Origin: an uncultured Planctomycetia bacterium
GTDB lineage: Bacteria > Omnitrophota > Gorgyraeia > B26-G9
Length of the DNA stretch: 64,000 nucleotides
NCBI GenBank assembly: GCA_964437495.1
Contig: CAYTGV010000011.1
Span: forward strand, 3,964 to 67,963
Direction: 5' to 3'
A program made the translations under genes and the position numbers. Positions 43,275 through 60,497 of the stretch are shown here, piece after piece. Positions within the stretch are counted from its first letter, which is position 1. Every line of letters starts with the position of its first letter. Under the pieces are notes generated by a model, which was not told where the DNA came from, made no database searches, and was given only the letters and a program-made list of their open reading frames with translations.

Positions 43275-43499
43275 CTTTTGTCTCCTGGTTATCAGTCCAT
43301 GAATATAAGTAAATGATTAACCCCTATTGTATCATAAGACTGGATAATTTCAAGGAATAGAGAAAGTGGAGAGTTTGGGCAGGAAAAAGACACAAGACAC
43401 AGGTCACAAGTCACAAGTTTCAATTTGACCAACAATCTATTCTCTCCCCTTTTGGAATTTTTAGCTAAATTTCTTTGGTTTAGGTTTGAGTGTAGTTAT

Positions 43500-43830
43500 G
43501 GGGCGATGCCTGCCCCCGATGAAACGTCCCCCAGCCTTCATTTCCTTTTGTCGTCTAAAGGAAACGAAGCAAAGGCCCCGACTAAAAGCATGCGGGATAA
43601 ATTCAACCATGCAACTTACCTCAAAAAAAATCTGTAAGTTACGGTTTCATTTTAAAACTCGCCCCCAAAGAAACCGCGATGATTTTCTAATGGTTTACTC
43701 ACTGCGACTTCATCCCGCAAAAGGCGGGATTCGCCGCCAATTCGGCAGTCCTGCCTCATGGCGTTCCGCCGTCCTGGCTGCATCTTCGTTCCTAAACCAA
43801 AGAAAAGTCTATCGCTCATTTCAAAGGGGG
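43500..43830 (-). ncRNA. Copy A of a repeated ~230-330 nt structured-RNA-like element (unknown class). It is inverted relative to copies B and C and flanked by GTCACAAG-type direct repeats
   Basis: The reverse complement aligns with copies B and C. The shared 3' block is gcuggggga-cg-N-aucgggggcaggcaucgcccc, and the hairpin cuucguuucc/ggaaaugaag matches B. ORFs 43425..43637 and 43486..43836 overlap it and are judged spurious. Confidence 0.5.
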
Positions 43831-43956
43831 ATTTGAAAAACCGAAAAAAGTCACCAAGTCACAAGGTCACATGTCACAACTTAAAAATAGAACCATCCCT
43901 TTTTTTTCTTTTTTTAAAAATAAAAAATAATAAAGAAGCTCATTGATATAATATTA

Positions 43957-44052
43957 ACTAAAAACTAGTCGCTGTCCCTAGTTTCAAGTTCGAGATCACC
44001 TACTGGGGTGAACTTCTTCGCGCGCTCCCACCAGTTAGGTGGAATGAGTTGT
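43957..44052 (-). repeat. attC-like site (distal-most; R' end degenerate)
   Basis: acctactggggtgaacttcttcgcgcgctcccaccagttaggt is an imperfect palindrome homologous to the site at 48644..48718. It has ...gagttGTTATAAg at the ORF-proximal end. Confidence 0.55.
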
Positions 44053-44990
44053 TATAAGTTTAAATTTTCTATTTGCTCAATAGGCACGCCGTTTATTTTC
44101 CAAACAGGCTCTAATGCGTCAATTAAACCACAGTTAAAGTTTATAGAGCCGTTTTTTTCAAAATGCAAATTTATGCAGTCAGTTCCTTTATCCGTTCTTG
44201 AATAGGTTGCTTTTGAACCGTTTGAAAAATGAACACTGAAACCGTATAATCCTTTTTCCTCATTATTTAATAATTCTAGTATCTCATATTGAGGCCATTT
44301 ATGAAATTTTTTAGCTTTGCCACAAAAATTAAGGTATTCTTTATGCCACGATATTAATGCTCCATAAAAATTAAAGCAATTAGATATTAGTACGCTTATT
44401 TCTTCAAGTGGTATTTGTTGTGCAGGGCCTCCTTCAGTCCATCTATAATACTCAGAGGAAAATATATAATCTGAATGGAAAAAAGAATTTCTGACCTTGT
44501 TATTAAAAAAAGAATCAAAATATTCTATCAACAAAGTTTCTTTTGTTTTTGTTGCAAGTTCTTTTATATAATCTATTTTTCGCTTAGCACTTGGAGGAAT
44601 ATAGCCAAGTATTTGTTTTTTATTAGATCGTGATAAATGACCAAAGGGTCTAATATGATAATGTTCGCCAGCAATAATTCTTAATATATTAGTGAGTAAT
44701 TCGTGAGGAGCTGTCATTTCAATTGCTTGACAATATATTAATAAACCGATCCTCCAATGACCGTTTTTCGAAGGAGCATCTTTCGCTTTTTTCAAAAGCC
44801 AATTGTAATCTTCAAATGATTTTTGCGATTCTTCGAAAGAATCCCAGTCAGCGTCTTGGCACCCACCAACTCTCAAAAGAGAACATATTGTGTCAAAAGC
44901 ATTTTTTTCAAAAGCTTTGCGTGCTAACGAACAAAAATATTCGAAAAATTTTTCTTTTTCTATGAATTTCAATTCTTTTAAATCATTCAT
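44052..44990 (-). CDS. Cassette ORF, hypothetical protein (312 aa)
   Basis: Long ORF with attC-like sites on both sides. No recognisable motif. Confidence 0.6.
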   Translation of the reverse strand: MNDLKELKFIEKEKFFEYFCSLARKAFEKNAFDTICSLLRVGGCQDADWDSFEESQKSFEDYNWLLKKAKDAPSKNGHWRIGLLIYCQAIEMTAPHELLTNILRIIAGEHYHIRPFGHLSRSNKKQILGYIPPSAKRKIDYIKELATKTKETLLIEYFDSFFNNKVRNSFFHSDYIFSSEYYRWTEGGPAQQIPLEEISVLISNCFNFYGALISWHKEYLNFCGKAKKFHKWPQYEILELLNNEEKGLYGFSVHFSNGSKATYSRTDKGTDCINLHFEKNGSINFNCGLIDALEPVWKINGVPIEQIENLNL

Positions 44991-44998
44991 TTTTTTAC

Positions 44999-45124
44999 TT
45001 ATAACGTTTGAGCTCAGGCAACTTAGCTAATAGCCAATAGTCGATGGCTAATAGTTATCTTGCTTCATGTTTTTTACTATTGACCATCAGCTATGAGCCA
45101 TAGGCCATTCTGTTTGCTTGAAGC
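44999..45124 (-). repeat. attC-like site, family 1 (...GTTTGAGCTCAGGCAACTTAGCTRATAGCCAATAGTCGATGGCTAATAG...GACCATYAGCTAT...)
   Basis: TTATAAC at one end and GTTATAC at the other. The internal inverted repeat is ctaatagccaatagt / actattgaccatcag. Further copies lie at 51892..52003, 52290..52390, 53085..53265, 54868..55002, 55705..55870 and 56440..56590, with a partial copy at 50085..50250. Confidence 0.6.
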
Positions 45125-45130
45125 GAATTG

Positions 45131-45586
45131 TTATACTTTCTTATTATAATATAATCTAAATTTCTCAATAACTAAAATATATATTTGAGAGGGTTTCATC
45201 CCCTTGGTAATTGCAGAATCATAATCTTTGGGTGTTTTTATGTCCATAATTTTACCATCATTAAATTTTTCATGCCATTTTGATTTTTCACTTACTATTA
45301 TAGATTTATTTGAGTCTTCATACTGATCTGATGTGATATCAATAATAACACTATCCAGAACAATCCATTCATGCGAAGAACCATTATACATAGCGCCACA
45401 AAATCTTTTTGGCTTTAATCCGAACTCATTTTTTAGGCAATTTCCTAAAAATAATGTAGCCCAGCTACAACAACCACTAGGAAAATGCGGAAGAAAGCCA
45501 GGAGCATTATCTAGATTTATATTTTCAATAGACTTTCTGAATAATTGTGCTATTTTTAATAATTCTTTTTTATTAATTTTTTTCAT
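45131..45586 (-). CDS. Cassette ORF, hypothetical protein (151 aa)
   Basis: ORF with GTTATAC, then ctgaataa, then ATG upstream. Confidence 0.55.
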   Translation of the reverse strand: MKKINKKELLKIAQLFRKSIENINLDNAPGFLPHFPSGCCSWATLFLGNCLKNEFGLKPKRFCGAMYNGSSHEWIVLDSVIIDITSDQYEDSNKSIIVSEKSKWHEKFNDGKIMDIKTPKDYDSAITKGMKPSQIYILVIEKFRLYYNKKV

Positions 45587-45589
45587 TTA

Positions 45590-45678
45590 TTCAGAGTATA
45601 ACATCGACATCACCCGCCGGTAGACGCGACGCAAAGCGGCACGGGTAACGGTCCGGGGAATGAAGTCATTATATGTTT
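45590..45678 (-). repeat. attC-like site, short GC-rich family
   Basis: gtataacatcgacatcacccgccggtagacgcgacgcaaagcggcacgggtaacggtccgggg is an imperfect palindrome with a TATAAC end. Confidence 0.45.
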
Positions 45679-46689
45679 TTATCCCAACTTTAGTATTTTT
45701 ATATTTGAAAGTTTAGCTGGTCCACATTCATTAAAAAATCCAAATCTTAAATCTCTTTCAAATTCTGCAAAAAGATCTTTTCCATTACCACTATCATCTT
45801 GAATTATTAACTTTGCACCATCAACATAAAAATCAAATATTTTACTTGCAACATCAATCTTAACTTCAATAGCAAAAGAGTTTTTAACTTTTACTAATTT
45901 TTCGGGGACACAATTCAAAATTTTTGGCCAATAAAATTTTTGAGTGCAATGCAAAACACTATTTGGGGTTCCCGGAGCACCACGATTATCAAGTCGTAAC
46001 ATTTTAAAGTTGCCATCATCGACATAGTTAAAAACAAAATTAACTAAAGAATCTTTAGGTAACGATAAATCAAAAGCTAAATGCAAAAAAGTGCTAATCT
46101 TGTTTTTGAATATTAAAAAAGAATGAACTCTCGTTCTATCAATATTAAGATTCAGAACAAGATTAGAATCATAGTCTGGATTTCCAGCTAATTTATTTAA
46201 TATAAATTTCTCAATAATTATATTCTTCGATAGTGCGCTAAGTGTAGCATTAAGCAATCCCAGAGCCATCTGAGCATGCCCAAGATCAATGGGCCACCCC
46301 TTTTTTGCCTGTTTTTGAGGATGAATAAAATTTCTATAATCTTTAAATAGATTATAAATCAGCTTAAATTCATCTATTTCGGGAAGCAAGTCAACATCCT
46401 TTAAAAGAATATATAATTCGCTAATTGTAAGACTGTTAAATTTCTTTAATTTTTGATTAACTCCTTCTTTTGGGTATTTAGGAGAATTTTTTAATTCAGT
46501 TTTATAAATATCAGCTAAATATATAAAAATCCCTTCAATTGTGCTAATTGATAAAAAAATAGTACTATAATTAGCATTAACTATAAAAACTCTTTCTAAT
46601 TCTTGAAGTCTTCCACGCAATACAGCTCTTAACTCAACATCATTTATAAAATTAAGTTCTTGCTTTGTGATTTCAGTTTTGTATTCCAT
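45679..46689 (-). CDS. Cassette ORF, hypothetical protein (336 aa) with a DYRNFIHPQK motif (possible HEPN-like Rx4-6H)
   Basis: It shares the motif DYRNF[IV]HP.K with the unrelated cassette protein 46860..47684. Confidence 0.55.
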   Translation of the reverse strand: MEYKTEITKQELNFINDVELRAVLRGRLQELERVFIVNANYSTIFLSISTIEGIFIYLADIYKTELKNSPKYPKEGVNQKLKKFNSLTISELYILLKDVDLLPEIDEFKLIYNLFKDYRNFIHPQKQAKKGWPIDLGHAQMALGLLNATLSALSKNIIIEKFILNKLAGNPDYDSNLVLNLNIDRTRVHSFLIFKNKISTFLHLAFDLSLPKDSLVNFVFNYVDDGNFKMLRLDNRGAPGTPNSVLHCTQKFYWPKILNCVPEKLVKVKNSFAIEVKIDVASKIFDFYVDGAKLIIQDDSGNGKDLFAEFERDLRFGFFNECGPAKLSNIKILKLG

Positions 46690-46705
46690 TTAATTCCTTG
46701 TTTTC

Positions 46706-46882
46706 ATATAACGTTTGAACTCAGCTACTAAGTTGAGCTCCACCTGTCCCGCCGTTTTGTGGCGAGATTTGCGCTTGCCTCGCCAGGCTTTTTGGCGGGC
46801 GCACCCTCCAGCCTGAGAGATTTTTTAAATTCCTCAGGTTCTCGCACTCTTTAAGAGGGTTACCTGTAGTGATTTGTTAGTC
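46706..46882 (-). repeat. attC-like site, family 2 (GC-rich palindromic core ...cccgccgttttgtggcgag...ctcgccaggctttttggcgggcg...)
   Basis: CATATAAC-GTTTGAACTCAGC at one end and gatttGTTAGtc at the other. A related site lies at 48079..48191. Confidence 0.55.
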
Positions 46883-47684
46883 TACTTTTTTTTGTTAAAT
46901 TTTTTTCAAAATAATTACAAATACTATCCAGAGCCCCTTTAGCCATGAATGCTTCTGGTTCATCACATGAATGTTCTTCCTTTATTTCTTTTTTGGGATG
47001 AACGAAATTGCGATAGTCACGAAGAACCTGATCAATTGTATTCGCTTTTTTATCTGGCAGGATTGAAATATCAGTTGCAACTTCAATCAAATCTTTTAAC
47101 ACCCATTCATCTTTCAAAATATCTTTTACTTTTTTATGCTTATCTCTAGGTGCTTTTAAGCTAGCCATAGCTTTTTTTCTAATTTTACTTTTTGAACACA
47201 ATAAATCATATAATATTGCTTCTAAAATACTTCCTGCAATAATAACACAGCTTTTCCATGCTCTGCTAGGCAGTAAAATCACAGATAATTCCTTATAGTC
47301 TCTTTCAACTATATTGCGCAATTTTTTGTCCGAAATATAAGGAAAACAACGCTGTTCAGCAAAACTACCTTCACCCCCATAATTTTCAAGGATGTCGATT
47401 AATTTCTGTATTGTTGAATAAAGGTCTAAGCCAGGGTAAAGGAGAGGAAGAGTAAGAATAGAGTCTGATGTTTTTTTAGTATATCTTCTTATAACCACTC
47501 TTATACTTACAAACTCATATTGCCATTTGGGAAGAAAATCTCTAGGATCAAGGCGATTGATTTCTTCAGTAAGAGCTGTAAGTAATTCATGTACGTTTGC
47601 AGTTGTTTCATCATTCCTTTTTTTTTGCAAAGTTAAAGATTTCCTCTGTATCTCTGTACATAGTTTTTTTAAATAGCCAACCAT
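46860..47684 (-). CDS. Cassette ORF, hypothetical protein (274 aa) with a RDYRNFVHPKK motif (possible HEPN-like)
   Basis: The motif is shared with 45679..46689. The start is preceded by GTTAGAC. Confidence 0.55.
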   Translation of the reverse strand: MVGYLKKLCTEIQRKSLTLQKKRNDETTANVHELLTALTEEINRLDPRDFLPKWQYEFVSIRVVIRRYTKKTSDSILTLPLLYPGLDLYSTIQKLIDILENYGGEGSFAEQRCFPYISDKKLRNIVERDYKELSVILLPSRAWKSCVIIAGSILEAILYDLLCSKSKIRKKAMASLKAPRDKHKKVKDILKDEWVLKDLIEVATDISILPDKKANTIDQVLRDYRNFVHPKKEIKEEHSCDEPEAFMAKGALDSICNYFEKNLTKKSRLTNHYR

Positions 47685-47701
47685 ATTAATATTATTCCTT
47701 T

Positions 47702-47893
47702 GTCTAACAGGTTAATATACGAACTTCGCATTTTAAATACAGCGTAGAGCGTCTAATTTATCCCGCCGTTCTTTAGCGGGAGCGCTTAGCGAATTCAAAC
47801 TACCCCCTCATCCCTAAACCCTATTCCCTGCGTTTCTATCCCCTTTTCGCGCACATGCACCTACCGCGCACGCACCTACGAGGTGAATTTTAA
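47702..47893 (-). repeat. attC-like site, family X (long; contains atacagcgtatagcgtctaatttatcccgccgttctttggcgggagcgcttagcgaat)
   Basis: Three copies (47702..47893, 49374..49560, 58740..58985) share more than 85% identity over about 120 nt, including the hairpin cccgcc-gttcttt-ggcggg. The R'-like ends GTTAGAC/GTTAGAT abut the downstream ORF starts. Confidence 0.55.
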
Positions 47894-48058
47894 TTATTTA
47901 TCTTTATCTACTGTATTTATATCGCAAGGAACTACAGCTCCACATTTAGGACATTTAGTAGGGATGCCCTTAATCTGAATATGCAAACCTTCTTCATGTT
48001 GAATAGGGGATTCAAATCTATTATTGCATTCGGGACAAGACAAGTATCTCTTAGACAT
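47894..48058 (-). CDS. Cassette ORF, 54-aa zinc-ribbon protein (absent from the ORF track; below the length cutoff)
   Basis: The minus strand reads ggaggaacta ATG and encodes MSKRYLSCPECNNRFESPIQHEEGLHIQIKGIPTKCPKCGAVVPCDINTVDKDK*. It has two CPxC pairs and a strong RBS, and sits exactly between two attC-like sites. Confidence 0.6.
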   Translation of the reverse strand: MSKRYLSCPECNNRFESPIQHEEGLHIQIKGIPTKCPKCGAVVPCDINTVDKDK

Positions 48059-48195
48059 TAGTTCCTCCTTTATTGCTGTATAACATTTGAGCTCAGCTAC
48101 TGGCTTGAACTACTTTTGCGCACACCCTCCAGCCTAAGAAATCTCAGGTTCTCGCCCTCTTTCGAGGGTTAGCTGAAGTAATTTGTTATCTGTTT

Positions 48196-48630
48196 TTATT
48201 CTTTTTCTTCTAGAACTTTTTGCACAACACCTTCAGATATTACTATTTCTTCTCCTGTAACACTGATAAATTGAAAGGTTTTAGTATTAATCAATATAGT
48301 TTCTATTGCCAATGGGAGTGTCCTGGTAAGACATATAACCTTATCTTTTGTCCCAGTTGGAAGGCCAGAGTAAATATATGAGATTGTATATTTATCATTA
48401 ATTTTGTCTAATTTGGTTTGGTCGGAAGGATTTGTTTGTTCGATTATGCGTGCTAGTTGAAATGTTTCATTTATTTTTATTCTATGCACGAATAAGTTTG
48501 GATTTTTCTCTGGAATTATTTCCCCATTTTTATATATACCAACATTTTGCTCAGTTAAAACTAATGTTTCTGTAGCTAAGGCGTTAGAGCATATAAAAAG
48601 AAAACCAAGTAATAAAATTAGTTTTTTCAT
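48196..48630 (-). CDS. Cassette ORF, secreted or lipoprotein (144 aa)
   Basis: The signal peptide is MKKLILLLGFLFICSNALA. GTTATATG, then aaaggaaa, then ATG lie upstream. Confidence 0.6.
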   Translation of the reverse strand: MKKLILLLGFLFICSNALATETLVLTEQNVGIYKNGEIIPEKNPNLFVHRIKINETFQLARIIEQTNPSDQTKLDKINDKYTISYIYSGLPTGTKDKVICLTRTLPLAIETILINTKTFQFISVTGEEIVISEGVVQKVLEEKE

Positions 48631-48643
48631 TTATTTTCCTTTC

Positions 48644-48718
48644 ATATAACATTCAAACTCACCTACTGGGGTGAACTTCTTTGCACGCTCCCACCAGTTA
48701 GGTGAAAGAGTTGTTAGA
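48644..48718 (-). repeat. attC-like site (short palindrome acctactggggtgaac...cccaccagttaggt)
   Basis: CATATAAC and GTTAGAG ends. It is homologous to the site at 43957..44052. Confidence 0.55.
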
Positions 48719-48720
48719 GA

Positions 48721-49374
48721 TTATTTGTCGAAATTTATTTTAATATTTTTATAACCCAGCTTTTCGAATATATTACACAAACTTGAAAATGCTTGTCTAT
48801 CATTATGTATTAAATGAGGTCCTACATCAAGAAAAGCTCTACTAATCATATAATAAAAATCGCTGCCAAACAATAAGAGCTCTTTCATAACTGCATGACT
48901 AGGCAAGGAATTTCGTTTAGCTTGGTATTCTGCATGAGCAATTACTTTGTTTCGGACATAATCGTATTGTGAAAAACAAATCTTATGTTTTGAATAAAAG
49001 TTTTTGCAGATAACTTCTAGTGTTTCAATGTAATTATCTTTCTCACTATTGTTCTCATATTTTTCTATAAATTCATTAACGTATTCATAATATTTTGGTT
49101 GAACATCATTGCTTTTTATAAAGTTTAAAATTGCGGGAATGGAGTTCAGTTGATAATCTTTTTCTGGTTCAAAAATTTTACAAATATTAATTACGCAAGA
49201 CTCTAAAAGAACCATCTGAATGTGAACAAAAAATCTTTTTCCTATTCCAATAGTGTTTATATTGTCTGCGTTTAAGCCGAGTAGCTTTTCTGAATCAATG
49301 CTTTGCTTAAGTGAAAAAAGTATTTTTGCTAATTCTTTATTTCTCTCATCTAATTTTTTCATCATTTTTTTCAT
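48721..49374 (-). CDS. Cassette ORF, hypothetical protein (217 aa) with a possible HEPN-type Rx4-6H motif (RNKVIAH)
   Basis: ORF with GTTAGATGaaaaaa then ATG upstream. The motif assignment is tentative. Confidence 0.5.
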   Translation of the reverse strand: MKKMMKKLDERNKELAKILFSLKQSIDSEKLLGLNADNINTIGIGKRFFVHIQMVLLESCVINICKIFEPEKDYQLNSIPAILNFIKSNDVQPKYYEYVNEFIEKYENNSEKDNYIETLEVICKNFYSKHKICFSQYDYVRNKVIAHAEYQAKRNSLPSHAVMKELLLFGSDFYYMISRAFLDVGPHLIHNDRQAFSSLCNIFEKLGYKNIKINFDK

Positions 49375-49582
49375 CTAACATTTAATATACGCAATTCGCA
49401 TTTTAAATACAGCGTATAGCGTTTAATTTATCCCGCCGTTCTTTGGCGGGAGCGTTTAGCGAATAACAAATCCAAAACTACCCCCTCATCCCTAACCGCT
49501 GCTTTTAACTAGTAATTCATAATTCACGTGTGCCCTTTAGGGTTTAACTCATAACTATGTTTCCCTATTCTCTGCTTTTCTG

Positions 49583-49814
49583 TCTCCCCTTTGAAACCAA
49601 GCATTATGTTTTTCTTTAAGTTAGGCGTTTGGGCGAAGACAGGATGTCGAAGCGCCGTAAGGCAGGATTGCCTTTTCGGCGGTTTACCCATGAGACTAAC
49701 TTATTAGAAAAACAATGCTGTTTCTCAGGGGCGGTTTTCCTTTGCTTCGTTTCCTTTAGACGCCAAAAGGAAATGAAGGCTGGGGGACGCTTTATCTGGG
49801 GCAGGCATCGCCCC
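49583..49814 (+). ncRNA. Copy B of the repeated structured-RNA-like element, embedded inside a composite attC region
   Basis: It aligns with copy C. The helix gcgccg...cggcg (B) versus gugccg...cggca (C) shows a compensatory change. The hairpin cuucguuucc/ggaaaugaag (with a G.U pair on this strand) versus cauacuuucu/agaaaguaug in C also shows compensatory changes. The conserved 3' end is gcugggggacgc..aucgggggcaggcaucgcccc. The overlapping 72-aa ORF 49629..49847 is judged spurious. Confidence 0.5.
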
Positions 49815-50256
49815 TTAATCCCACATAAATCCCCTGCCGCTTTCTAAAAATAAAAAAAGACAATCCCCTCAATCTCTTGAGAAAATCGCCTTAAAATTAA
49901 ACTTTTTGTATGCACTCATTAATTCTACTCCTTTGTAGCCTTATGAGTTTGTCAAAACCATATTAATTTAGGTTACATCTTTCTCTTACACAAGTCAATG
50001 AAAAATCAAACAGGGAAAACTGCCCCATTTTAATGAACTTTTATGTTTTTTCTCTCCACTTTTAATATATTCTATATAGTCGATAACCAATAGTCTATGG
50101 CTAATAGTTATTTTATCTTTAATCTGCTTCTTCACTCATCACTAATAATTCATAATTTGTAACTATTTGGACCATTAGCTATGAGCTATAAGCCATTTCA
50201 TTTGCCTGCCTGTCCCGCCGCTTTTTGGCGGGGAAGCGATTTGTTAGGGGTTTTAT

Positions 50257-50622
50257 CTATAGATCATTACGTAAATTTGTTAGTTTTCTTTCTAAAACTG
50301 CAAGTTCTCGTAATGTATTCTCTTTAAGTTCAGTGTTTTTATTATCAACCTCACTAAAATCTATGTTTTTATAAGTATTTCTCAGGAAAATGAATTTTTC
50401 CAGCCAAACATTTAAATCCTGCCGTTCGGTTTCTTCACCCTCATTTATAAATATTTCCATACCATCAGTCAATTCTTTCCAGTAAACCTTTACTATTGAA
50501 AACACAGCATCTGGACTTTCGTCTTCATTAATATCAAGGCGAGTTGTCCATAACATAACTTCATTTAATTCAATTATGTCTAACAAAGAATCAACTACTT
50601 CCTTAATAATATCTCTACTCAT
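50257..50622 (-). CDS. Cassette ORF, hypothetical protein (121 aa)
   Basis: RBS AAGGAG. A TTGACA-N16-TAAAAT promoter-like sequence lies about 60 nt upstream on the minus strand. Confidence 0.55.
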   Translation of the reverse strand: MSRDIIKEVVDSLLDIIELNEVMLWTTRLDINEDESPDAVFSIVKVYWKELTDGMEIFINEGEETERQDLNVWLEKFIFLRNTYKNIDFSEVDNKNTELKENTLRELAVLERKLTNLRNDL

Positions 50623-50944
50623 AATTACTCCTTACCAATTTTATTCACACCTGATTTACTGTAATAAATTGTGCACCTTTAGGTAGACTAGGCATTCAAA
50701 TTTCACAACCTGAATGTCAGACCTTGATTTTAGACATTTTTTGTCAATTGTCAAGGTTTGCCCCCAGGTAATTTAGCCGATGGCTAATAGTTATTTTATT
50801 TTTAATCTGCTTGTTCACTTATAACTAATAATTCACTTGTGCCCTTTAGGGTCTTTGGGCTATTAGCTATGCCTGTCCGCTGTGCTTTGTAGCGAAAGCC
50901 ATTAGCCATTCTGATTGCCTGAAGCGATTTGTTATAATCTTAAT

Positions 50945-51310: not shown

Positions 51311-51328
51311 TTTATTCTCCTTTTTTAG

Positions 51329-51397: not shown

Positions 51398-51410
51398 GTT
51401 TTTATTTTAA

Positions 51411-52392: not shown

Positions 52393-52869
52393 TTATATCT
52401 CTCCTTTAAGCTGTTTTTGTTCTACCAAAAATCGATTTAACAGATTAGCAAATCCATGCGCATCTTTTTGACTAAAAGGAGATGGGCCTTTAGTCGGCAT
52501 ACCGTTATCGCGCATCTCTTGCATTAGATTGCGCATTGATAAATAAGATTTAATATTATCCTCGCTGAATAAATTTCCCCGATGATCCATAGCATAAGCT
52601 TTTTTAGTAATAACACTATCCGCCAAAGGAATATCTGCAGTTATAACCACATCACCTTCTTTGACCATTTCCACAATTCGCTCATCAGCCTCATCAGGTC
52701 CTGCCTCAACTATAAGATAAGTTATAAACTCTGATTTACCAATATTGATCCGTTTGTTTGATACAACAACACTCGGGAGAGAAAATCGTTTAATCGCTCT
52801 AAATAAAATTTCCTTTATCCGATTAGGAAAAGCATCGCCATCAAGGTATAGAGTCATCTTCATTAACAT
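52393..52869 (-). CDS. Cassette ORF, YaiI/UPF0178 (DUF188) family protein
   Basis: LYLDGDAFPNRIKEIL...GDVVITADIPLA...MRNLMQEMRDNG parallels E. coli YaiI (IWVDADACPNVIKEIL...GDLVITADIPLA). Confidence 0.7.
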   Translation of the reverse strand: MLMKMTLYLDGDAFPNRIKEILFRAIKRFSLPSVVVSNKRINIGKSEFITYLIVEAGPDEADERIVEMVKEGDVVITADIPLADSVITKKAYAMDHRGNLFSEDNIKSYLSMRNLMQEMRDNGMPTKGPSPFSQKDAHGFANLLNRFLVEQKQLKGEI

Positions 52870-53054
52870 ATCTGTTTAACCCTTCCGACAGCGCCGTCAA
52901 TCAATCTAACTTTTATCCCATGCGAATGCACAGAAGAATTTGTCAATATATCCTGAACAATCCCCTCGGTTAACTTACCGCTTTTTTGATCTTGTTTTAA
53001 TACTATTTTAACCTTCAAGCCTTGCTTTATATTTACTCTTTCATTTCCACTCAA
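52863..53054 (-). CDS. Cassette ORF, YwbE (DUF2196) family small protein
   Basis: A 63-aa protein with VKIVLKQDQKSGKLTEGIVQDILTNS...HGIKVRL, matching the YwbE signature. It shares a cassette with the YaiI gene and overlaps it by 7 nt. Confidence 0.6.
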   Translation of the reverse strand: MSGNERVNIKQGLKVKIVLKQDQKSGKLTEGIVQDILTNSSVHSHGIKVRLIDGAVGRVKQIC

Positions 53055-53270
53055 AATAATAATAGTTTCCTTTCTAAAACATTAAAATAAACCATGACAT
53101 CTCAGGCAATTTAGCTGATGGCTAATGGTCGATAGTCAATTGCTAACAGATATTGCAATTTTGTTTTTTGTTTATTGTTTTTCACTATTAGCCATTAGCT
53201 ATGCCTGTCCGCTGTGCTTTGTGGCGGAAGCTATTGACCATTGTAAAATGTCACTCTCCCCTTTTATCTC

Positions 53271-54749
53271 TTAGAATTTTCTGTAGAAAAATATGCATAT
53301 CTTCTTTAGCAGGGCATTATTCATCTTATTCATTATCCAAGTTTCCGCGATACGCTTAGATAAAAACCCCATAGTCGGAAATGAATGTGCCAGAAAAAGA
53401 ATATTAAGCAAGTTGATCTTTTTTTGAATTATAAGTGCCCATTCATTTATCATTTCACCTGAGCCCTCACCGATAATACTCACCCCATATACTTTTCCCA
53501 AAGGGCTGGCAAAAACCTTTATAAAACCAACCGCGATATTCTCCGCGATCGCAGCACCGTAATCCTCGTATTTAACAATAAGCGTTTCATACTTTATTCC
53601 TTTAGCTTTAAGTTCTTTTTCCATCATACCCACATAAGAAACCTGCGGTTCAGTAAAAGCTGTCCAGGGTATCACATAATTTCTGTATTGAAACAGCGAA
53701 AAAGGGCTAACAGCATTCATTATCGAAAACATTCCCTGATGCATTGCCACATGTGAAAGCATTATACCGCCATTACAATCTCCCACTGCATAAATATTCT
53801 TATTGCTTGTCCTGTATTTTGCATCAACCTTGATACCGTTCTTATCATATCCAACCCCGGCATTTTCAAGTTTTAAAGCATGAAGATCAATATTTCTCCC
53901 CGAACAGAGCAATAATTTTTCAGATTTTATACAAAGCCCGTCATCAGTGCGCAAAACAATCTGCCCCTCCTGATTGTTTACGCTGATAATCTTTTTTAAG
54001 TTGTAAACATCAATTCCTTCCTTTTTAAAGACTTCTTCAAGTACATTCCCAGCTTGTTTATCGCCAAAAGGTATAAGATGTTCATCCATTTGCACAATAC
54101 TACACTTAGTCCCAAGCCGAGTAAACGCCTGAGCCATCTCACAGCCCATAACACTGCCGCCGATTATAGTCATACTTTTAGGAGCTTCCTTTAAATCAAA
54201 AATATTTAGATTGGTTAGAAAATCTATATCAGAAATACCTTTTATTGGCGGAATTTGAGGCTCTGTGCCAACAGCAATAAAGATTCTCTGAGCAGTTAAA
54301 GTATCATCTCCCACTTTAACAGTATGCGCGTCTATAAAACTGGCATCTCCTTTTTCTAATATAAGCTTAACCTTATCAAACATTTTTATTGTCTTTTTAT
54401 TACATATGAAATCAAGATATTCAGCTATTTCTTTAGAAGGAAATTTTACTCGCAAATCCGGCTCTTTAATCACTCCTATTTGGCTGAGTTTTGAAAGCGA
54501 ATGCCTTAGCTTAGCGATTCTGAGCAGTGCTTTGCTAGGTATGCATCCTACATTCATACACTCTCCGCCAATTTTATTTTTTTCAATAGCGCATACTTTT
54601 AATCCCATTTCCGCGCCCATAATAGAAACAGCCATCCCGGCAGGTCCTAACCCAATACAGATTAGATCAAAATCATATTTCATGTATTCTCCTTGATCTT
54701 CCTTTTTCCAAACAACACTCTTGCATTCATTAAACCCGCAATTACTCAA
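53271..54749 (-). CDS. Cassette ORF, pyridine nucleotide-disulfide oxidoreductase (dihydrolipoamide dehydrogenase/mercuric reductase family)
   Basis: A redox-active disulfide GGECMNVGCIPSK, FAD- and NAD-binding GxGxxG motifs, and an extended hydrophobic C-terminal tail. Confidence 0.75.
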   Translation of the reverse strand: MSNCGFNECKSVVWKKEDQGEYMKYDFDLICIGLGPAGMAVSIMGAEMGLKVCAIEKNKIGGECMNVGCIPSKALLRIAKLRHSLSKLSQIGVIKEPDLRVKFPSKEIAEYLDFICNKKTIKMFDKVKLILEKGDASFIDAHTVKVGDDTLTAQRIFIAVGTEPQIPPIKGISDIDFLTNLNIFDLKEAPKSMTIIGGSVMGCEMAQAFTRLGTKCSIVQMDEHLIPFGDKQAGNVLEEVFKKEGIDVYNLKKIISVNNQEGQIVLRTDDGLCIKSEKLLLCSGRNIDLHALKLENAGVGYDKNGIKVDAKYRTSNKNIYAVGDCNGGIMLSHVAMHQGMFSIMNAVSPFSLFQYRNYVIPWTAFTEPQVSYVGMMEKELKAKGIKYETLIVKYEDYGAAIAENIAVGFIKVFASPLGKVYGVSIIGEGSGEMINEWALIIQKKINLLNILFLAHSFPTMGFLSKRIAETWIMNKMNNALLKKICIFFYRKF

Positions 54750-55019
54750 ACCAATATATACATGTCTCTTGCAGATCTTTTGTCAATGCAATACTATTTT
54801 TGTCTCAGTCAGGTGTAAATTCTGCTTTTTCAGTAATGTTTGACTTTTTTTATCCCCTTTTTCACTATATGACGTTTGAGCTGCCAGTTTAGCTAACTGC
54901 CAATAGTCGATGGCTAATAGTGGTTTGCTCTATATTTTTTTACTATTTACCATTAGCTATAAACCATGAGCCATTATATTTACCTAAAGTAATTTGTTAG
55001 ATGTTTATATATTTTAAAA

Positions 55020-55364
55020 TTAATCTTCTACAAAAATTGTTTTCTTTATCGGATTAGGTGCTTTTACTACCAAAAACTTCAATGGATTTTGACTTTCATT
55101 GTACCAACAATGCACAATATCTTTCGGACTATCTATTAAAGTATTTTTTGAAACTTTTTGTTTTTCTTCTCCGATCTCAACAATTCCTTCTCCTTCCAGT
55201 ACATAAAAGACAACATCAACAGGTGTTATGTGACGCTTTAATGATTGACCTGGAATTAGCGTGATTACTGTAATCATGACTGCTTCTTTATTGTATAGAT
55301 TTCTAACGTCCACGTTGTGCGCATTATTCATTATTTGAGTTTCATCTAATTTTTTTATTATCAT
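55020..55364 (-). CDS. Cassette ORF, cupin-domain protein
   Basis: A 114-aa protein with a cupin-like G(x)5HxH-type segment (LIPGQSLKRHITPVDV...). Confidence 0.45.
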   Translation of the reverse strand: MIIKKLDETQIMNNAHNVDVRNLYNKEAVMITVITLIPGQSLKRHITPVDVVFYVLEGEGIVEIGEEKQKVSKNTLIDSPKDIVHCWYNESQNPLKFLVVKAPNPIKKTIFVED

Positions 55365-55422
55365 TTTATCTCCATTGTTATTATTAATAATTTTAATTCT
55401 TTTATTACCGATTAAAAAGCAC

Positions 55423-55680
55423 TCAACCCACCATCTTCATAATCCCCACATAAGCACCAAAACCAATACCCCAGGAAATTGCTACCCAAAAGATTAGTTT
55501 TGTTTCGGCTAGAATATCTTTCCAATATTCCCCTCTACACATTGAAAAAATATTTGGGATGAGCCAAAATTTTATACAACGCAAAAATTCTTCTTTGTCT
55601 CCGAAAAAGGGTTTCCATAGAAGATAGGCTAGGCCGACTCCTACTATAGTTCCCACACTCTTACTAATAATAGCTATCAT
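55423..55680 (-). CDS. Cassette ORF, small membrane protein (85 aa)
   Basis: Two hydrophobic helices, in the same cassette as the cupin gene. Confidence 0.4.
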   Translation of the reverse strand: MIAIISKSVGTIVGVGLAYLLWKPFFGDKEEFLRCIKFWLIPNIFSMCRGEYWKDILAETKLIFWVAISWGIGFGAYVGIMKMVG

Positions 55681-56000
55681 ATACTCTCCGTTTCATGGAT
55701 TCCTATAACATTTGAGCTCAGGCAACTTAGCTGATAGCCAATAGTCGATGGCTGATAGTTATGTTGCTCTATGTTTTTTACTATTCACCATTAGCTATGC
55801 CTATCCGCTGTGATTTGTAGCGGAAGCCATTAGCTATACGCTATTGACCATTTTAAAATGTCGCTGTCCCCTTTAATACACGTTTGATTTTATATATAAC
55901 GTTTAAGCTCAGGCAAAAATCAGCGCATAGAAAATTCAGACATAGTAATCGCTGTCTCTTTTCCCCTCACTAAATCAAGAACAGTTCAGTCTAATCTCTT

Positions 56001-56414
56001 TTATTGTTTTTTCTCTCTTAAATATAAAACTAACACACAAACTCCATGGATTACAAAAGCCGGTGCAAATAAAAGGCCTATAAAGTATCCATTAGTGCTT
56101 ATTCCGGAAGCAAATGCCCAGATGTATATTGCTGATACACCTAAACTAGCAATCGCATCTACCAATTTATAATTATCTTTCTTATAGTATAAAGGCAAAG
56201 CGCCTAATGCTGCATAAATAGCTCCGTTAAAAATCAGAGTTATCGTTTCCTTCTGGGATATGCCAAGTTTAAAAATATTTTGTATCCCAAATAATAAGCC
56301 CAAAAAACCTAAAAGAAGTAAAGGAAAATGGTAGTACATAGCAATATTGGGATTGAATTTCTCAAGAACATGTCCGAGAGTTCTATTTTCATTTGTAGTT
56401 TTGTTTTCTTCCAT
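56001..56414 (-). CDS. Cassette ORF, 4-TM membrane protein (137 aa)
   Basis: Hydrophobic profile only. Confidence 0.5.
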   Translation of the reverse strand: MEENKTTNENRTLGHVLEKFNPNIAMYYHFPLLLLGFLGLLFGIQNIFKLGISQKETITLIFNGAIYAALGALPLYYKKDNYKLVDAIASLGVSAIYIWAFASGISTNGYFIGLLFAPAFVIHGVCVLVLYLREKKQ

Positions 56415-56607
56415 GTCTTACTCTCCATTTTCTTTATATAACGTTTGAGCTCAGGCAAATTAGCTGATAGCCAATAGTCGATGGCTAATAGTTATTTTAT
56501 TTTTAAACTGCTTCTTCACTCATAACTAATAATTCATGTGTGCCCTTTAGGGTATAACTCATAACTATGTTTACCTATCCCCTGCTTTTCTCTCACCCTT
56601 TTAAAAC

Positions 56608-56637
56608 ATAATATGCCATTTCCATGAATTTTGTCAA
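56608..56637 (-). promoter_or_regulatory. Near-consensus sigma-70 promoter (TTGACA-N18-TATTAT) reading into the downstream cassettes
   Basis: The minus strand reads TTGACAaaattcatggaaatggcaTATTAT. An almost identical copy lies at 60182..60211. Confidence 0.55.
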
Positions 56638-56728
56638 TTTTATATTATTTTTGTCTTTTTATCCCCTTTTGGAATTTTTAGCTATATTTCATTGTTTTAG
56701 GGGAATGGATGGAGTAGAGGCGAAGGAA

Positions 56729-58561
56729 TTAAATGCTTTGGTCAATTTTTGTTTTGTTTTGAACCTGAAAAATTTTTATCCCAGCGGCAAGAAATGAAAT
56801 TGAGGCGAGATTTGCTAGGTTTTTGCTGTTTAGCTCTTCTTGCACCCATTCTGTTTGATTAACAGAGGATCCTAAAAAAGTATGTAAAAGTCTAGCGGAA
56901 ATAGAACGTTCTTTGGCTTGGGTTGTAAAATTAGGAGATTTAGCAAGAGAAATGACTTTTATTTTTTCTTGGATAGATAAGTCATTATAGAAATTATTTA
57001 TAACCTGTAGTAATTGTTCAAATCTCTGATTGCTGGTTGTGTATGCAGGCAATTCGGCTTTTCTTGATAGAAACGGCTCTTTAGTTCCTAAGAAATCTTG
57101 ATCTACATCTAAAATTATATCTTGATCTTCATCTGCAAGTTTTTTAAGTTTTATTGCATCCTTGGGAGATACTAAATGAACCTCTACTTTTCTTACATTA
57201 GTGAATTTTGCATTTTCGCCTTCCCATTCTTCTTTGATATACCCTTTTTCATAACTTCCAAAAACGTTGTTTCCATCTAAAGATACAGAAACAAAAGTAT
57301 CTTTGCCTCTAAACATTGCTTTTCCAATAAGAATTTCATATTTTTTGTTATATTCTGGAACGTAGTCTACGTTGCTGGATTCATTTGCTTCTTCAGGGAC
57401 AACCCAAATTATTTTATCGATTATCCCAGCATAAACAGCTGGAATAATGAAACCATCGATGTCAGATTTTTGGGTAATGCGTCCTAACATTTCATTATTA
57501 AAATTTCCGTTCAAAAAAGCATCTAAAAAATCATTATTTAATCTGTAAGAAGCTAAATCTCGATGGGCATCAAAGTGAAATAAGGTTCTTTTTTTTGTTT
57601 TAGGACCTAACTCCTTCATCCAAGCATATAATGCCCAATAATGAGCATAGCCTATATAAACCGGAATATCGGTAGAAGTAATTGCTCTGGGTTTAGAGAT
57701 ATTGTTAAAAAGATCTAGCTCATAAAAAAAATCAGCATTCTCAAACTGATCTTGGATTACTGAATATGTGTTTTGATCAAAAATCAATGGGTATGTGCCT
57801 GCATCAAACCAAGTTACATATTTTTCTTTATTATCTTTATTGGCATATAATTCAAAAATTTTGTTTGCACGGCTTAATCTAGAAAACATGATGTCTAAAT
57901 ATGATATTAAATCTGTTTCACCTTTAATTGTTAAAGATTCTTTTAATTTCATAAAATGCATTTGCTGTTCATTATAAATTTTTGATGCCATTAACCAATC
58001 ACTACTATTCAAAGAATTGAGGAATAATTTCCAAATGGGATCATTTGTATCAAGGGTGATATCCGCATTTTTTAATAAAGAGTTTAAATGATTACCTACT
58101 GTCATTTTAGAATATCGAAGCTTATCTATAAATTTTTTTTCTTCTTGTTTTTTGAGAATTAATTCAGGATTAGCTTTTTTTACATATAATCCTGCATTGG
58201 CAATGCCTGGAGGAACTAAGGCATAAGTTATGGCGGCTCCAGTTAATATTCCCAAACCTTTGATAAATTTTCTTCTTCCAATAGAGATGTCTGAGTTTGC
58301 ATTTTTTGAATCATCAGAAATAATAAATCTTTTGATAAATGATTTTATATATTCAGCAAATTTTTTATTTTGGGGAGTTTTAGCTATCTCTATTGTATCT
58401 TTAAAGTATTCTTTTAAGTTTATATTGTTTAATTGTAAATGCGGGGCAAGGTGATTATTAAGTTCTATACAATAAGCCAAATCACCCAGAAGAAACATAT
58501 TAATTAAGAATAAAATGCAAAGTTGTTTCATTAGTTTATTTATTCTAATCTTAAGTTTCAT
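56729..58561 (-). CDS. Cassette ORF, large hypothetical protein (610 aa) with an internal twin-arginine-like segment (RRKFIKGLGILTGAA)
   Basis: Long ORF. The true start may be internal. No catalytic motif recognised. Confidence 0.55.
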   Translation of the reverse strand: MKLKIRINKLMKQLCILFLINMFLLGDLAYCIELNNHLAPHLQLNNINLKEYFKDTIEIAKTPQNKKFAEYIKSFIKRFIISDDSKNANSDISIGRRKFIKGLGILTGAAITYALVPPGIANAGLYVKKANPELILKKQEEKKFIDKLRYSKMTVGNHLNSLLKNADITLDTNDPIWKLFLNSLNSSDWLMASKIYNEQQMHFMKLKESLTIKGETDLISYLDIMFSRLSRANKIFELYANKDNKEKYVTWFDAGTYPLIFDQNTYSVIQDQFENADFFYELDLFNNISKPRAITSTDIPVYIGYAHYWALYAWMKELGPKTKKRTLFHFDAHRDLASYRLNNDFLDAFLNGNFNNEMLGRITQKSDIDGFIIPAVYAGIIDKIIWVVPEEANESSNVDYVPEYNKKYEILIGKAMFRGKDTFVSVSLDGNNVFGSYEKGYIKEEWEGENAKFTNVRKVEVHLVSPKDAIKLKKLADEDQDIILDVDQDFLGTKEPFLSRKAELPAYTTSNQRFEQLLQVINNFYNDLSIQEKIKVISLAKSPNFTTQAKERSISARLLHTFLGSSVNQTEWVQEELNSKNLANLASISFLAAGIKIFQVQNKTKIDQSI

Positions 58562-58992
58562 AAGTAATCAGTTTTCCTATTAACTAAATTATAAGTATCA
58601 ATTAAATTATACCTTATAACGTAGATATTATACAAATTAGTTAGCGTAATTTATTGATTTAATTGTTAGCTAAAACTATAGCTGGAAAGGCAATAAAAAT
58701 TAAGATTAGTAAATATTTATTTATGATTTATTTTCTTAAAATAACAATTAATATACATAGTATGTGTTAAATACAGCGTATAGCGTCTAATTTATCCCGC
58801 CGTTCTTTGGCGGGAGCGCTTAGCAAATCCAAAACTATCCCCTCATCCCTAACCGCTGCTTTTAACTCGTAATTCATAATTCACGTGTGCCCTTTAGGGT
58901 ATTTGGGCCATTAGCTATGCCTGTCCGCTGTGCTTTGTAGCGAAAGCCATTATGTTTGCCTGTAGCGAATTGTTAAAAATGTTTTAAAATAG

Positions 58993-60039
58993 TTAATTTT
59001 TATTTTCTATCAAATTTTTTAATTCTTTAGCAAGTAAAGACTGTCCCAATTTATTTAAATGACAATAATCAAGAAAAAATTTCTGTGTGTTCGCAGGGTT
59101 GTTATTAACTTGTTTTAGGAAATAATCATCCAGATTTAAAATATTTAAGTTATCTAACCCTATTAAGTTTTGTTTAATCATCGATTGAAGTTGCGGAGTA
59201 ATGAGAAATCTTCTTTTTATCCAATTTTTTTCGATTATATCTCTAGTGATATTAATATCTTTCGGCATTTCTATATTCAATTGGTCGTATTTTTTCATAT
59301 GGTTCCAATTGTGTGTATAGTTTATTGGGGGAATAACATAAATAAAATTTGTTTGAGGGTTATCATTTATTATACTTCTTAGTTCTCTTAGTCTCATTTT
59401 ATAAAATGAATTTTGCAATGAAATATAGAATTTGTTTAAATAAGGCCAAGAATCTTTCCCTCCACCTTTTATTATCGCAAAGGGAAATCGATGAGGATGC
59501 TTTGATTGGCATATTTTGTCGTATAAAGTATTTATTGTATTATGAGTTGTGTGTGAAAAAAAACTGATTTGAGAAAAGATTTTGGGTAAAAAGTATCGAA
59601 TGAGAAAAACTGCACAATTAGAATGTTCACTACGGTTTAGTAGTTCTAAATATTCATTATTACCAGAAAAAATAACGCAATTTTCAATATCATTTGTTCT
59701 TAAGGAGTTATATAAATAGTAATTTATTTCTGAGAGAGGAATCCCAATGTTTGAATCATTAATGATGGTACTTTTGGGGAAATAACTTGCTAGCAATTCA
59801 GAATATCTATCGTTAATATTTTCTAACCCCGCTCCTTTTGAAGCTGAGCCTCCAAGACAAAGAATATCAATCTTCTTACCAAAATCATGCACCTCAGGCA
59901 ATTTAAAAGATACTTCTCTTAGTACATAAAATCTTTTCCCCCGCCCTATAGTAATCCGAGTTATTAACTCAACAGCGCTTAGAATAATAATGAGGGTAAA
60001 AAATACAACATATAGTTTGTGGAGAATATTTTTTTTCAA
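58993..60039 (-). CDS. Cassette ORF, membrane-anchored hypothetical protein (348 aa), possibly SGNH/GDSL-like
   Basis: An N-terminal TM helix. ILCLGGSASKG weakly resembles GDS(L) block I. Confidence 0.45.
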   Translation of the reverse strand: MKKNILHKLYVVFFTLIIILSAVELITRITIGRGKRFYVLREVSFKLPEVHDFGKKIDILCLGGSASKGAGLENINDRYSELLASYFPKSTIINDSNIGIPLSEINYYLYNSLRTNDIENCVIFSGNNEYLELLNRSEHSNCAVFLIRYFLPKIFSQISFFSHTTHNTINTLYDKICQSKHPHRFPFAIIKGGGKDSWPYLNKFYISLQNSFYKMRLRELRSIINDNPQTNFIYVIPPINYTHNWNHMKKYDQLNIEMPKDINITRDIIEKNWIKRRFLITPQLQSMIKQNLIGLDNLNILNLDDYFLKQVNNNPANTQKFFLDYCHLNKLGQSLLAKELKNLIENKN

Positions 60040-60181
60040 GATTTTAATTTCTTATTTTTAACAATTAATATACATAGTATGTGTTTGCTTGAAGGTATTC
60101 TTAATCTTGCCCTGAATATGGTTAAAATTGCCTACTTTAACTTTAATATTTATCTATTTTATCAATAATATCATATTATCC

Positions 60182-60211
60182 ATAATATGTCATTTCTATG
60201 AATTTTGTCAA
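60182..60211 (-). promoter_or_regulatory. Near-consensus sigma-70 promoter (TTGACA-N18-TATTAT) at the proximal end of the cassette array, Pc-like
   Basis: The minus strand reads TTGACAaaattcatagaaatgacaTATTAT, reading towards the first cassette (58993..60039). Confidence 0.55.
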
Positions 60212-60233
60212 TTTTATATTATTTTTGTCTTTT

Positions 60234-60497
60234 TCTCCCCTTTTGGAATTTTAGCTATATTTCTTTTTTTTAGGGGGATGGACGAAAACAGGATGTTGGA
60301 GTGCCGTAAGGCAAGACTGCCTTTTCGGCAATGGATTTTCGAGACTTCAGACTCGGAAATTCATCCAGACACCTAAACCATTAGAAATATGCAAAAATTC
60401 CTTAGGGGTGGGTTTTCTTTGCATACTTTCTTTTAGCCACCGAAAGAAAGTATGGCTGGGGGACGCAACATCGGGGGCAGGCATCGCCCCCCCCCCC
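60234..60497 (+). ncRNA. Copy C of the repeated structured-RNA-like element, at the proximal boundary of the array; it ends in an 11-nt C tract
   Basis: See copy B. It has compensatory hairpins relative to A and B and a conserved 3' block. ORFs 60128..60376 and 60347..60556 overlap it and are judged spurious. Confidence 0.5.

Follow-up and report, generated by a model that had tools for sequence, protein, structure and literature searches.

The window analysed here is a 64,000-nucleotide (nt) stretch of one contig (G000:C11:3964-67963) from a 2.1-Mb genome of Candidatus Omnitrophota (83 contigs, 37.7% G+C, 92%-complete). Between positions 43996 and 58995 it carries an integron-type cassette array in which all genes lie on the minus strand and which contains 14 attC-like imperfect palindromes. 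Associated with this array are three copies of a folded element, here referred to as copies A, B and C. Copy A lies at the distal end of the array and adjoins pilZ, copy B lies within the array and antisense to the cassette genes, and copy C is located at the upstream head, divergent from the first cassette gene. With moderate confidence, we favour the view that these copies are lineage-restricted, multi-copy genes for a structured non-coding RNA, that this RNA represents an Omnitrophota variant of the TwoAYGGAY class (RF01731), and that the copies have probably spread with cassettes.

Comparison of the three stretches showed that copies A, B and C are homologous. Their placement in a first-pass annotation, made from the sequence of the window, proved correct, and the core limits were refined by nhmmer and alignment. 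Copy A (43500..43834, minus strand, 335 nt) is a long form with an additional stem 3' of helix P4; its linker joining the 5' rod to helix P6 contains a 78-nt insert. Copy B (49582..49814, plus strand, 233 nt) is the short form, and copy C (60234..60490, plus strand, 257 nt) has an additional stem after P4. All three contain the conserved 3' block described in that annotation (GGCUGGGGGACG ... GGGGCAGGCAUCGCCCC). Optional expansions of the element occur at fixed places, namely as a stem after P4, as an insert in the loop region of hairpin P4a and as the 78-nt insert in the linker preceding P6. The latter was seen only within copies of the element, and the idea that it forms an independent mini-element was rejected for this reason. 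The first-pass annotation had overlooked two 5' fragments in the window. One is derived from a C-type copy (43440..43484, plus strand, approximately nt 1-45 of the element); it abuts the 3' end of copy A, is convergent with it, and displays 89-92% identity to 60231-60274 and 56662-56701. The other (56607..56715, plus strand) comprises an upstream module, U, and the first ~55 nt of the element, breaks off ~20 nt from the stop codon of the gene at 56729..58561, and is 93% identical to 60181-60282. In copy C, but in none of the other copies, the terminal hairpin is directly followed by a run of ~11 C residues (60490-60500).

A consensus fold was determined by RNAalifold. The 19 full copies of the genome yielded 48 consensus pairs, 15 of them with compensatory double changes, and an alignment of 24 sequences from at least six genomes yielded 62 consensus pairs, 29 of which had compensatory double changes. 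The 5' domain (~150 nt) forms a long irregular basal rod, consisting of P1 (CCCC:GGGG), P1b, P1c, P2a and P2b, which leads into a junction from which hairpin P3 and the nested hairpin P4/P4a emerge. The hairpin loops of P3 and P4a follow the consensus CA-N-GA-YG and often read AGGAU or AUGGAU. In the lineage-specific 3' domain (~85 nt), a helix of a pyrimidine tract and a G-tract, P5', encloses the 13-bp hairpin P6, and the domain ends with the invariant stretch GGCUGGGG and the terminal GGGGC...GCCCC hairpin P7. In copy B, the CCCC strand of P1 is located at 49586-49589, the P3 hairpin at 49638-49648, the P4a hairpin at 49661-49672, P6 at 49745-49778 and P7 at 49798-49814. An independent helix scan found double covariation in P2a, P2b, P3, P4, P4a and P6. 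The two covarying helices named in the first-pass annotation correspond to P4 (GCGCCG/CGGCG-type) and P6 (CUUCGUUUCC/GGAAAUGAAG-type), and its description of a conserved folded element with compensatory changes is borne out by the larger alignment. In the variable outer rod, cognate 5'/3' duplexes had a mean of -16.4 kcal/mol, compared to -12.4 kcal/mol for non-cognate ones. The single-sequence minimum free energy (MFE) folds of copies B and C match the consensus derived from the alignment; for copy B the MFE was -97.4 kcal/mol (z = -5.7), and none of 200 shuffled sequences folded as well.

No reading frame is conserved across the copies: only 8 of 36 are free of stop codons from end to end, and these in differing frames. 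The peptide GAMPAPD shared by overlapping open reading frames (ORFs) is the translation of the conserved terminal hairpin, in agreement with the earlier view that the element does not encode a protein. Neither a small conserved ORF nor a conserved antisense ORF occurs among the copies, and the idea of a type I toxin was rejected since no small conserved ORF is present. With regard to the strand, P1 and P5' have invariant U-G pairs (24/24 and 23/24), P6 has a conserved G-U pair in 17 of 24 sequences, and the sense strand folds better than the antisense strand by 10.8 kcal/mol. The strand assignment from these data is good but not absolute.

A profile built from copies A, B and C detected 19 full copies and approximately five fragments in the genome, thus 16 full copies beyond those recognized in the first-pass annotation. 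The suggestion made there, that the element specifically brackets and interrupts this one array, does not hold, as about half of the ~20 copies have a housekeeping gene as their neighbour (uvrA, rex, rpsA, fhs, xerD and a radical SAM gene). All copies are intergenic. Twelve of the 19 are antisense to both neighbours and would therefore not be part of the neighbours' mRNAs, and 13 are convergent with the downstream gene at a distance of 58-443 nt. No recurrent protein partner was found, as clustering of the ORFs within 5 kb of the 19 copies returned only unrelated tetratricopeptide repeat (TPR) proteins. BLAST matches of the element were confined to genomes of the same family. A covariance model (R1) comprising the 3' domain only was used to search 151 genomes from 53 families of the class, with matches in the own family and none in the 52 other families; 13 of the 18 family genomes were positive, with 1-22 copies each. 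This distribution throughout the family had likewise escaped the first-pass annotation. Viral contigs contained no match to the element, and a viral origin is unsupported.

Comparison with Rfam (version 15) provided a link to a described RNA class. At gathering threshold, the only matches in the window were two tRNA genes (612-694 and 752-823, minus strand), and permissive scans of 18 kb and of copies A, B and C alone (E <= 10) returned nothing meaningful. The cmscan proposed in the first-pass annotation thus gave no gathering-level match for the window copies. Among 16 isolated copies scanned, however, the paralogue G000:C1:130276 matched RF01731 with 37.8 bits (E 0.0017), the alignment covering the full 168-position model and lying on the 5' domain, and a second paralogue matched with 25.6 bits. 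When the whole genome was searched with RF01731, the top matches were the 5' domains of exactly these two element paralogues, now with 37.8 and 32.2 bits, the former corresponding to a per-genome E of 1.7e-4; the gathering score of RF01731 is 43 bits. Two further matches (35.9 and 33.4 bits) were obtained in the relative genome G009. These are versions of the element with the 5' domain only, two exact AUGGAU loops and no 3' domain. Such copies are located on L176 (G009:C6) at 1512-1655 and 2854-3050 and on L178 (G009:C47) at 1492-1634, and had been overlooked by the covariance model of the 3' domain. They tie the family to the TwoAYGGAY architecture and identify the 3' domain as an add-on. The element is therefore best filed as an extended, sub-threshold TwoAYGGAY variant in a new phylum, membership by Rfam's own criterion not being reached. 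Accordingly, the earlier label of an unclassified or new element stands insofar as no copy attains the Rfam gathering score, but its 5' domain appears to be a sub-threshold relative of this orphan family.

TwoAYGGAY was first described as a probable non-cis-regulatory RNA from gut metagenomes, gamma-Proteobacteria and Clostridiales (Weinberg et al. 2010, PMC2864571). Pseudomonas genomes harbour many copies, with medians of 11-23 and up to 202; there the RNA carries extra hairpins, a longer basal stem, short 5' repeats and 3' arrays of repetitive extragenic palindromic (REP) sequences, and is often truncated or arranged in divergent doublets, a behaviour described as "mobile-element-like" (bioRxiv 10.64898/2026.09.22.753630). 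The Omnitrophota element shares with the class a basal stem with two successive hairpins, P3 and P4/P4a being placed within the P2 rod and supported by compensatory changes in the 24 sequences, as well as GGA-containing loops and an orphan character that is not cis-regulatory. It is free-standing and multi-copy, with 19 copies, most of them antisense to both neighbours, and no recurrent neighbour family. Also in common are large differences in copy number between relatives, truncated copies, divergent doublets (C2:78887(-)/79708(+), and further pairs in L077, L049, G004:C82 and G013:C91), a lengthened basal stem, 3' extensions particular to the lineage and, upstream, short tandem repeats. The flanks of the element contain an excess of short-period repeats. 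Directly upstream of copy A lie four GTGAC repeats with 7-8-nt spacing (43850..43878, minus strand), which are common to two other A-type copies. The extended Pseudomonadota form has three extra hairpins, a 3' pseudoknot, 5' GMTBT(T) repeat arrays and 3' REP arrays (bioRxiv 10.64898/2026.09.22.753630); the two-hairpin 3' extension, the period-7/8 repeats upstream of A-type copies and the heptamer arrays in the flanks of the Omnitrophota element are analogies only. In contrast to the described class, the Omnitrophota element has the loop consensus CA-N-GA-YG, and its 3' domain (P5', P6, GGCUGGGG, P7) has no described counterpart. An Omnitrophota host and a link to integron attC sites are both unreported for TwoAYGGAY, and the word integron does not occur in the Pseudomonas study (bioRxiv 10.64898/2026.09.22.753630).

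The cassette array recognized in the first-pass annotation is real, and attC-like sites occupy almost every spacer. These sites are ~130 nt long, with ATAAC ... GTTAT/GTTAG arms and a centre of heptamer repeats. The centres consist of tandem heptamers (AGCTAAT, AGCCAAT, AGTCGAT, GGCTAAT), and similar arrays flank an insertion in the rex-serC spacer that lies outside any array. As had been noted before, copies A and C are placed at the two ends of the array in opposite orientation; both read outward. The same arrangement was found in a sister species (G004), where both positions are occupied only ~1.1 kb apart, indicating that the array content is variable. In G004 the site of copy A is occupied by a different subfamily, and the start of the copy C orthologue coincides with the end of contig G004:C118. 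Copy B is embedded in the central region of a composite attC, again in agreement with the first-pass annotation. This site (49465..50250, minus strand, ~785 nt) belongs to the cassette gene 50257..50622, with its R'' arm at 50233-50250 and its R' end near 49465, within a shared module termed R2. The R2 module occurs directly upstream of three unrelated cassette genes (47703-47817, 49376-49543 and 58742-58900) and contains a CCCGCC...GGCGGG hairpin and what resembles the R' end of the attC before it. A role as a shared leader or promoter at cassette junctions is conceivable.

The association with attC sites is not restricted to the window. Similar arrays are present on three other contigs of the genome, and isolated attC-like sites occur on contigs such as C15. 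Nine of the 19 copies lie within 3.5 kb of arrays or attC-like sites, which cover 3% of the genome (P 1.5e-9), and at least three copies are located inside attC sites, so that the tie to attC sites suggested in the first-pass annotation was confirmed. In addition to copy B, these are one copy in G009, where a complete integron carries the element between the R''-L'' and L'-R' arms of its last attC, and one in G017, where the element lies in an attC between two tandem Y1 genes resembling those of REP-associated tyrosine transposases (RAYT), apparently integron cassettes (L109, G017:C10, 2-388 and 819-1475). No empty attC with the arms of the G009 or G017 sites was found among the loci fetched. 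Within 220 nt of the 19 copies, there were no significant flanking inverted repeats, i.e. not every copy is surrounded by attC arms. The element itself does not conform to the attC definition, as it has no RYYYAAC ... GTTRRRY arms and does not occur in consecutive spacers; in the GTTAGGC/CTAAC subfamily the polarity is reversed relative to attC arms, and the element occurs in few spacers only. Integron integrases (>400 bits to TIGR02249) were detected in 11 of the 18 family genomes. The idea that the element is a fixed part of the integron platform was rejected, as a copy is found near only one of eight intI loci in relatives and its presence does not track that of intI. No integrase gene adjoins the array in the window, and the tyrosine recombinases detected in the 92%-complete assembly are XerC and XerD only. 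At least four attC-like arrays in this genome (contigs C11, C2, C6 and C26) are without a detectable integrase, while an integrase is present in three sister species. Either the assembly lacks the gene, or these are arrays of the CALIN type (clusters of attC sites lacking an integron integrase).

Several lines of evidence bear on the mode of spread. Several species, and even genera, have copies at the same positions, although the pattern is patchy; these are the 3' ends of rpsA and fhs, the region upstream of uvrA, and the neighbourhoods of xerD and pilZ. Same-site copies of different species do not cluster in the tree, and different subfamilies are found at syntenic sites. Five A-type copies in the own genome differ by only 0.03-0.05 substitutions per site, the similarity starting and stopping at the edges of the fold. 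The rex-serC spacer harbours a ~750-nt insertion, made up of heptamer repeats, the element and an attC-arm-like segment, which is not found in G004 and G003. Near-identical A-type copies, patchy sites and this insertion indicate movement, gene conversion among copies, or both. Between species, single copies are 84-91% identical, compared to 77-80% for coding DNA, and the flanks cannot be aligned. Judged by its sequence, the family thus behaves like a mobile or concerted-evolving repeat. The structure of the rex site together with the attC-embedded copies suggests that the element travels with cassettes, and cassette integration at non-classical genomic sites is documented according to the account in PMC12444791 (citing Loot et al. 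2024). A preferred location of the element in this lineage is the variable centre of attC sites, together with cassettes that lack an ORF; in the mechanism we propose, the integron integrase would move the cassettes, copies would probably be carried along, and gene conversion would homogenise them.

With respect to function, the two hairpin loops of the 5' domain may offer binding sites for a protein. GGA is essential for CsrA binding. It is present in the P4a loop of 31 of 36 copies, in the P3 loop of 21 and in both loops of 18. In the window, copy B has AGGAU in both loops, copy A has AGGAC in both, and copy C has AGGAU in P3 and AAGAC in P4a. A -10 box resembling TATAAT is located ~30 nt upstream in some subfamilies, and some copies are followed by a terminator at 25-30 nt. 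These features suggest that the element is transcribed as its own unit. The two GGA-bearing loops could then bind a dimeric RNA-binding protein, for which CsrA, encoded in the genome, is the most plausible candidate, and the ~20 copies together would constitute a CsrA-titrating pool. Binding of CsrA has been proposed for the loops of TwoAYGGAY (PMC4333381). Compared with CsrB, RsmY and RsmZ, the element likewise presents GGA in hairpin loops, ~22 nt apart, a spacing that suits a CsrA dimer; however, it has two candidate sites instead of 7-22, has a P3 loop without GGA in 15 of 36 copies, has no homology to these RNAs, and its binding of CsrA is only predicted. A function as a CsrA-titrating RNA is thus possible. 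Combining these proposals, TwoAYGGAY-type RNAs would be integrase-carried passengers of attC hairpins and ORF-less cassettes that also reach secondary chromosomal sites and whose transcript titrates CsrA; as a whole we consider this extended scenario tentative and, on present grounds, unlikely.

A number of observations weigh against the interpretation as a TwoAYGGAY-type RNA gene. Copies A, B and C have no RF01731 match even at E <= 10, no copy of the element attains the gathering score of 43 bits, and none of the 18 family genomes exceeds this cut-off. The exact AYGGAY motif is rare, occurring in P3 of 4 and in P4a of 9 of 36 copies; it is absent from the loops of A, B and C and was found in some paralogues and in the 5'-domain-only copies of G009. 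The P3 loop often contains CGA, UGA or AGA instead of GGA. Presence of the element is also uncoupled from that of intI across genomes. The sole strong promoter upstream of copy C points away from the element. This sigma-70-like promoter lies on the minus strand in the U module (60040..60233, minus strand), which starts at an attC R'-like TTGTTAT junction and also occurs at three further array positions in the genome; its -35 box (TTGACA, 60211-60206) abuts copy C, is followed by an 18-nt spacer and a -10 box (TATTAT) ending at 60182, and the promoter reads into the cassette genes. For copies A and B no promoter was found. The sequencing runs that contain the locus are two marine DNA runs, with no RNA run among them. 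Furthermore, the antisense strand folds well too, and counts of G-U versus A-C are balanced in most helices, so that the strand call rests on P1, P5' and P6. RNA and single-stranded DNA (ssDNA) cannot be told apart by sequence alone (PMC5737381).

The last points are shared by a serious rival explanation, in which the element acts at the DNA level only, as a selfish repeat or a structure for recombination that folds as ssDNA, is mobilized either with attC sites by the integron integrase or by Y1 transposases (HUH, IS200/RAYT-like), and has no function as RNA. Copies are found in the variable central part of attC sites, and these sites function as folded ssDNA; both strands fold strongly, none of A, B and C has a clear sense promoter, and according to Weinberg et al. 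such motifs may be ssDNA (PMC5737381). The copy number of 1-22, the truncated copies, the near-identical burst and the insertion polymorphism also conform to this explanation. Genes with a Y1_Tnp domain are present in all 18 family genomes (1-18 each), six of them in the own genome; the element of G017 lies between two RAYT-like genes, and element-Y1 pairs within ~1.5 kb occur in G009, G013 and G016. One of the Y1 genes of the own genome is in the window (6693-7025, minus strand; 331-aa ORF with an IS200/RAYT-like HUH domain), and others are on contigs C4, C13, C10 and C3. However, no Y1 gene adjoins any copy in the own genome, and TnpB is absent. Neither target-site duplications nor a pair of terminal hairpins as in IS200/IS605 were seen, and the lack of flanking inverted repeats around the 19 copies argues in the same direction. 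Conservation extends over the whole 235 nt, including unpaired loops and the three-way junction, and is not limited to terminal hairpins. The invariant G-U positions favour one strand, yet the element occurs in both orientations relative to cassettes, and the relationship to RF01731 points to a class judged 'probably RNA' (PMC2864571). We regard action at the DNA level alone as rather unlikely. An IS200/IS605 derivative (palindrome-associated transposable element, PATE) or a TnpB omega RNA would be expected to have TnpA-Y1 and/or TnpB, a subterminal hairpin near each end and a scaffold with a variable guide beside it. Here TnpB is missing, Y1 genes are present and adjoin the element in G017, G009, G013 and G016 but not in the own genome, and the flanks are partly conserved and not guide-like. 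The idea of a guide RNA (TnpB, IscB, Cas12k or bridge RNA) was rejected, as no TnpB, reverse transcriptase or IS110 gene is present and the flanks are semi-conserved, not variable.

Less probable still, and in our opinion doubtful, is that the element is a cis-acting transcript-boundary element similar to REP or bacterial interspersed mosaic elements (BIME), which would stop read-through or protect mRNA 3' ends and insulate cassette arrays. The exclusively intergenic location, the 13 copies convergent with a downstream gene, and the occupation of the same gene ends (rpsA, fhs, xerD, pilZ) in several species would suit such a role, as would the outward-reading positions of A and C at the borders of the array and an MFE of approximately -97 kcal/mol. 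But most copies have no U-tract after the terminal hairpin, a mere roadblock needs no sequence-specific conservation of loops, and the 12 copies antisense to both neighbours do not fit. In addition, the cassette gene next to copy B has its own terminator: an intrinsic-terminator-like hairpin (49857..49892, minus strand) is located 43 nt from the 3' end of copy B, and antisense read-through of the array across copy B is thus unlikely.

That the element is a self-cleaving ribozyme or the remnant of an attC-targeting group IIC-attC intron or of IS1111-attC with a guide RNA, as considered in the first-pass annotation, is very improbable: copy B and the G009 and G017 copies do occupy attC sites, the niche of such elements, and the fold is complex, but no ribozyme, group II or related Rfam family matched the isolated copies even at E <= 10 (hammerhead, twister, twister-sister, pistol, hatchet and HDV-like ribozymes included), reverse transcriptase (PF00078) and IS110 transposase (PF01548, PF02371) are absent from the 92%-complete genome, no large ORF such as the DEDD transposase expected for IS1111-attC/IS110 adjoins the copies, P6 equals domain V in length (34 nt) but lacks a bulge, a catalytic triad and a GNRA loop, and half of the copies lie outside attC sites.

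The element was also compared with further known systems. The integron-cassette-encoded small RNA sRNA-Xcc1 of Xanthomonas (Chen et al. 2011) is, as discussed in PMC12444791, a non-coding RNA of integron cassettes shared between species by cassette transfer. It is oriented against the cassette promoter according to the same discussion, which implies a need for its own promoter, and copies B and C, too, run antisense to the array. From what is described there, sRNA-Xcc1 differs in being paired with a symE toxin gene, whereas the Omnitrophota element has no recurrent protein neighbour, also occurs outside arrays, reaches ~20 copies per genome and shows no sequence or model match to it. Group IIC-attC introns, IS1111-attC and REP/RAYT systems resemble the element in the niche inside attC hairpins, in the dispersed intergenic multi-copy occurrence and in a genome rich in Y1 (RAYT-like) genes; in contrast, the Omnitrophota element has no intron domains, reverse transcriptase, DEDD transposase or TnpB, and compared with REP it is ~6-10 times longer and conserved throughout. 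The DUF1874 motif (Weinberg et al. 2017, PMC5737381) is another conserved multistem structure at integron-like arrays for which ssDNA and RNA are undecidable. It is found in consecutive spacers like attC, whereas the Omnitrophota element is an occasional passenger, and no Rfam match connects the two.

Among the cassette genes of the array, that divergent from copy B (48721-49374, minus strand) encodes a HEPN_AbiU2-like protein, and that at 56729-58561 (minus strand) a UPF0489/peptide-arginase-like protein. Other cassettes encode a pyridine-nucleotide disulphide oxidoreductase, a cupin, a DUF188 protein and GDT1. The ORFs at 45679-46689 and 46860-47684 (minus strand; 336 and 274 aa) are paralogues of each other with no significant family match, and the latter has only a sub-threshold MRG match.

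TwoAYGGAY has been an orphan RNA class since 2010, and its mobile-element-like expansion in Pseudomonas was reported in a 2026 preprint (bioRxiv 10.64898/2026.09.22.753630). If the sub-threshold relationship holds, the class would extend to a distant, uncultivated phylum, where it would have acquired a new 3' domain. New is also that copies repeatedly lie within attC sites of integrons and at either end of cassette arrays. Integron annotation calls for caution, as an RNA gene may be concealed in a long "composite attC". The attC context raises the questions of whether an element-bearing attC is still recombined by the integrase and whether the two loops are bound by CsrA. If TwoAYGGAY-type RNAs are indeed passengers of attC sites, a route of mobility and a genetic context would for the first time be available for this widespread orphan class, and the element would be a hitch-hiker of attC sites of a new kind, not dependent on any enzyme of its own.

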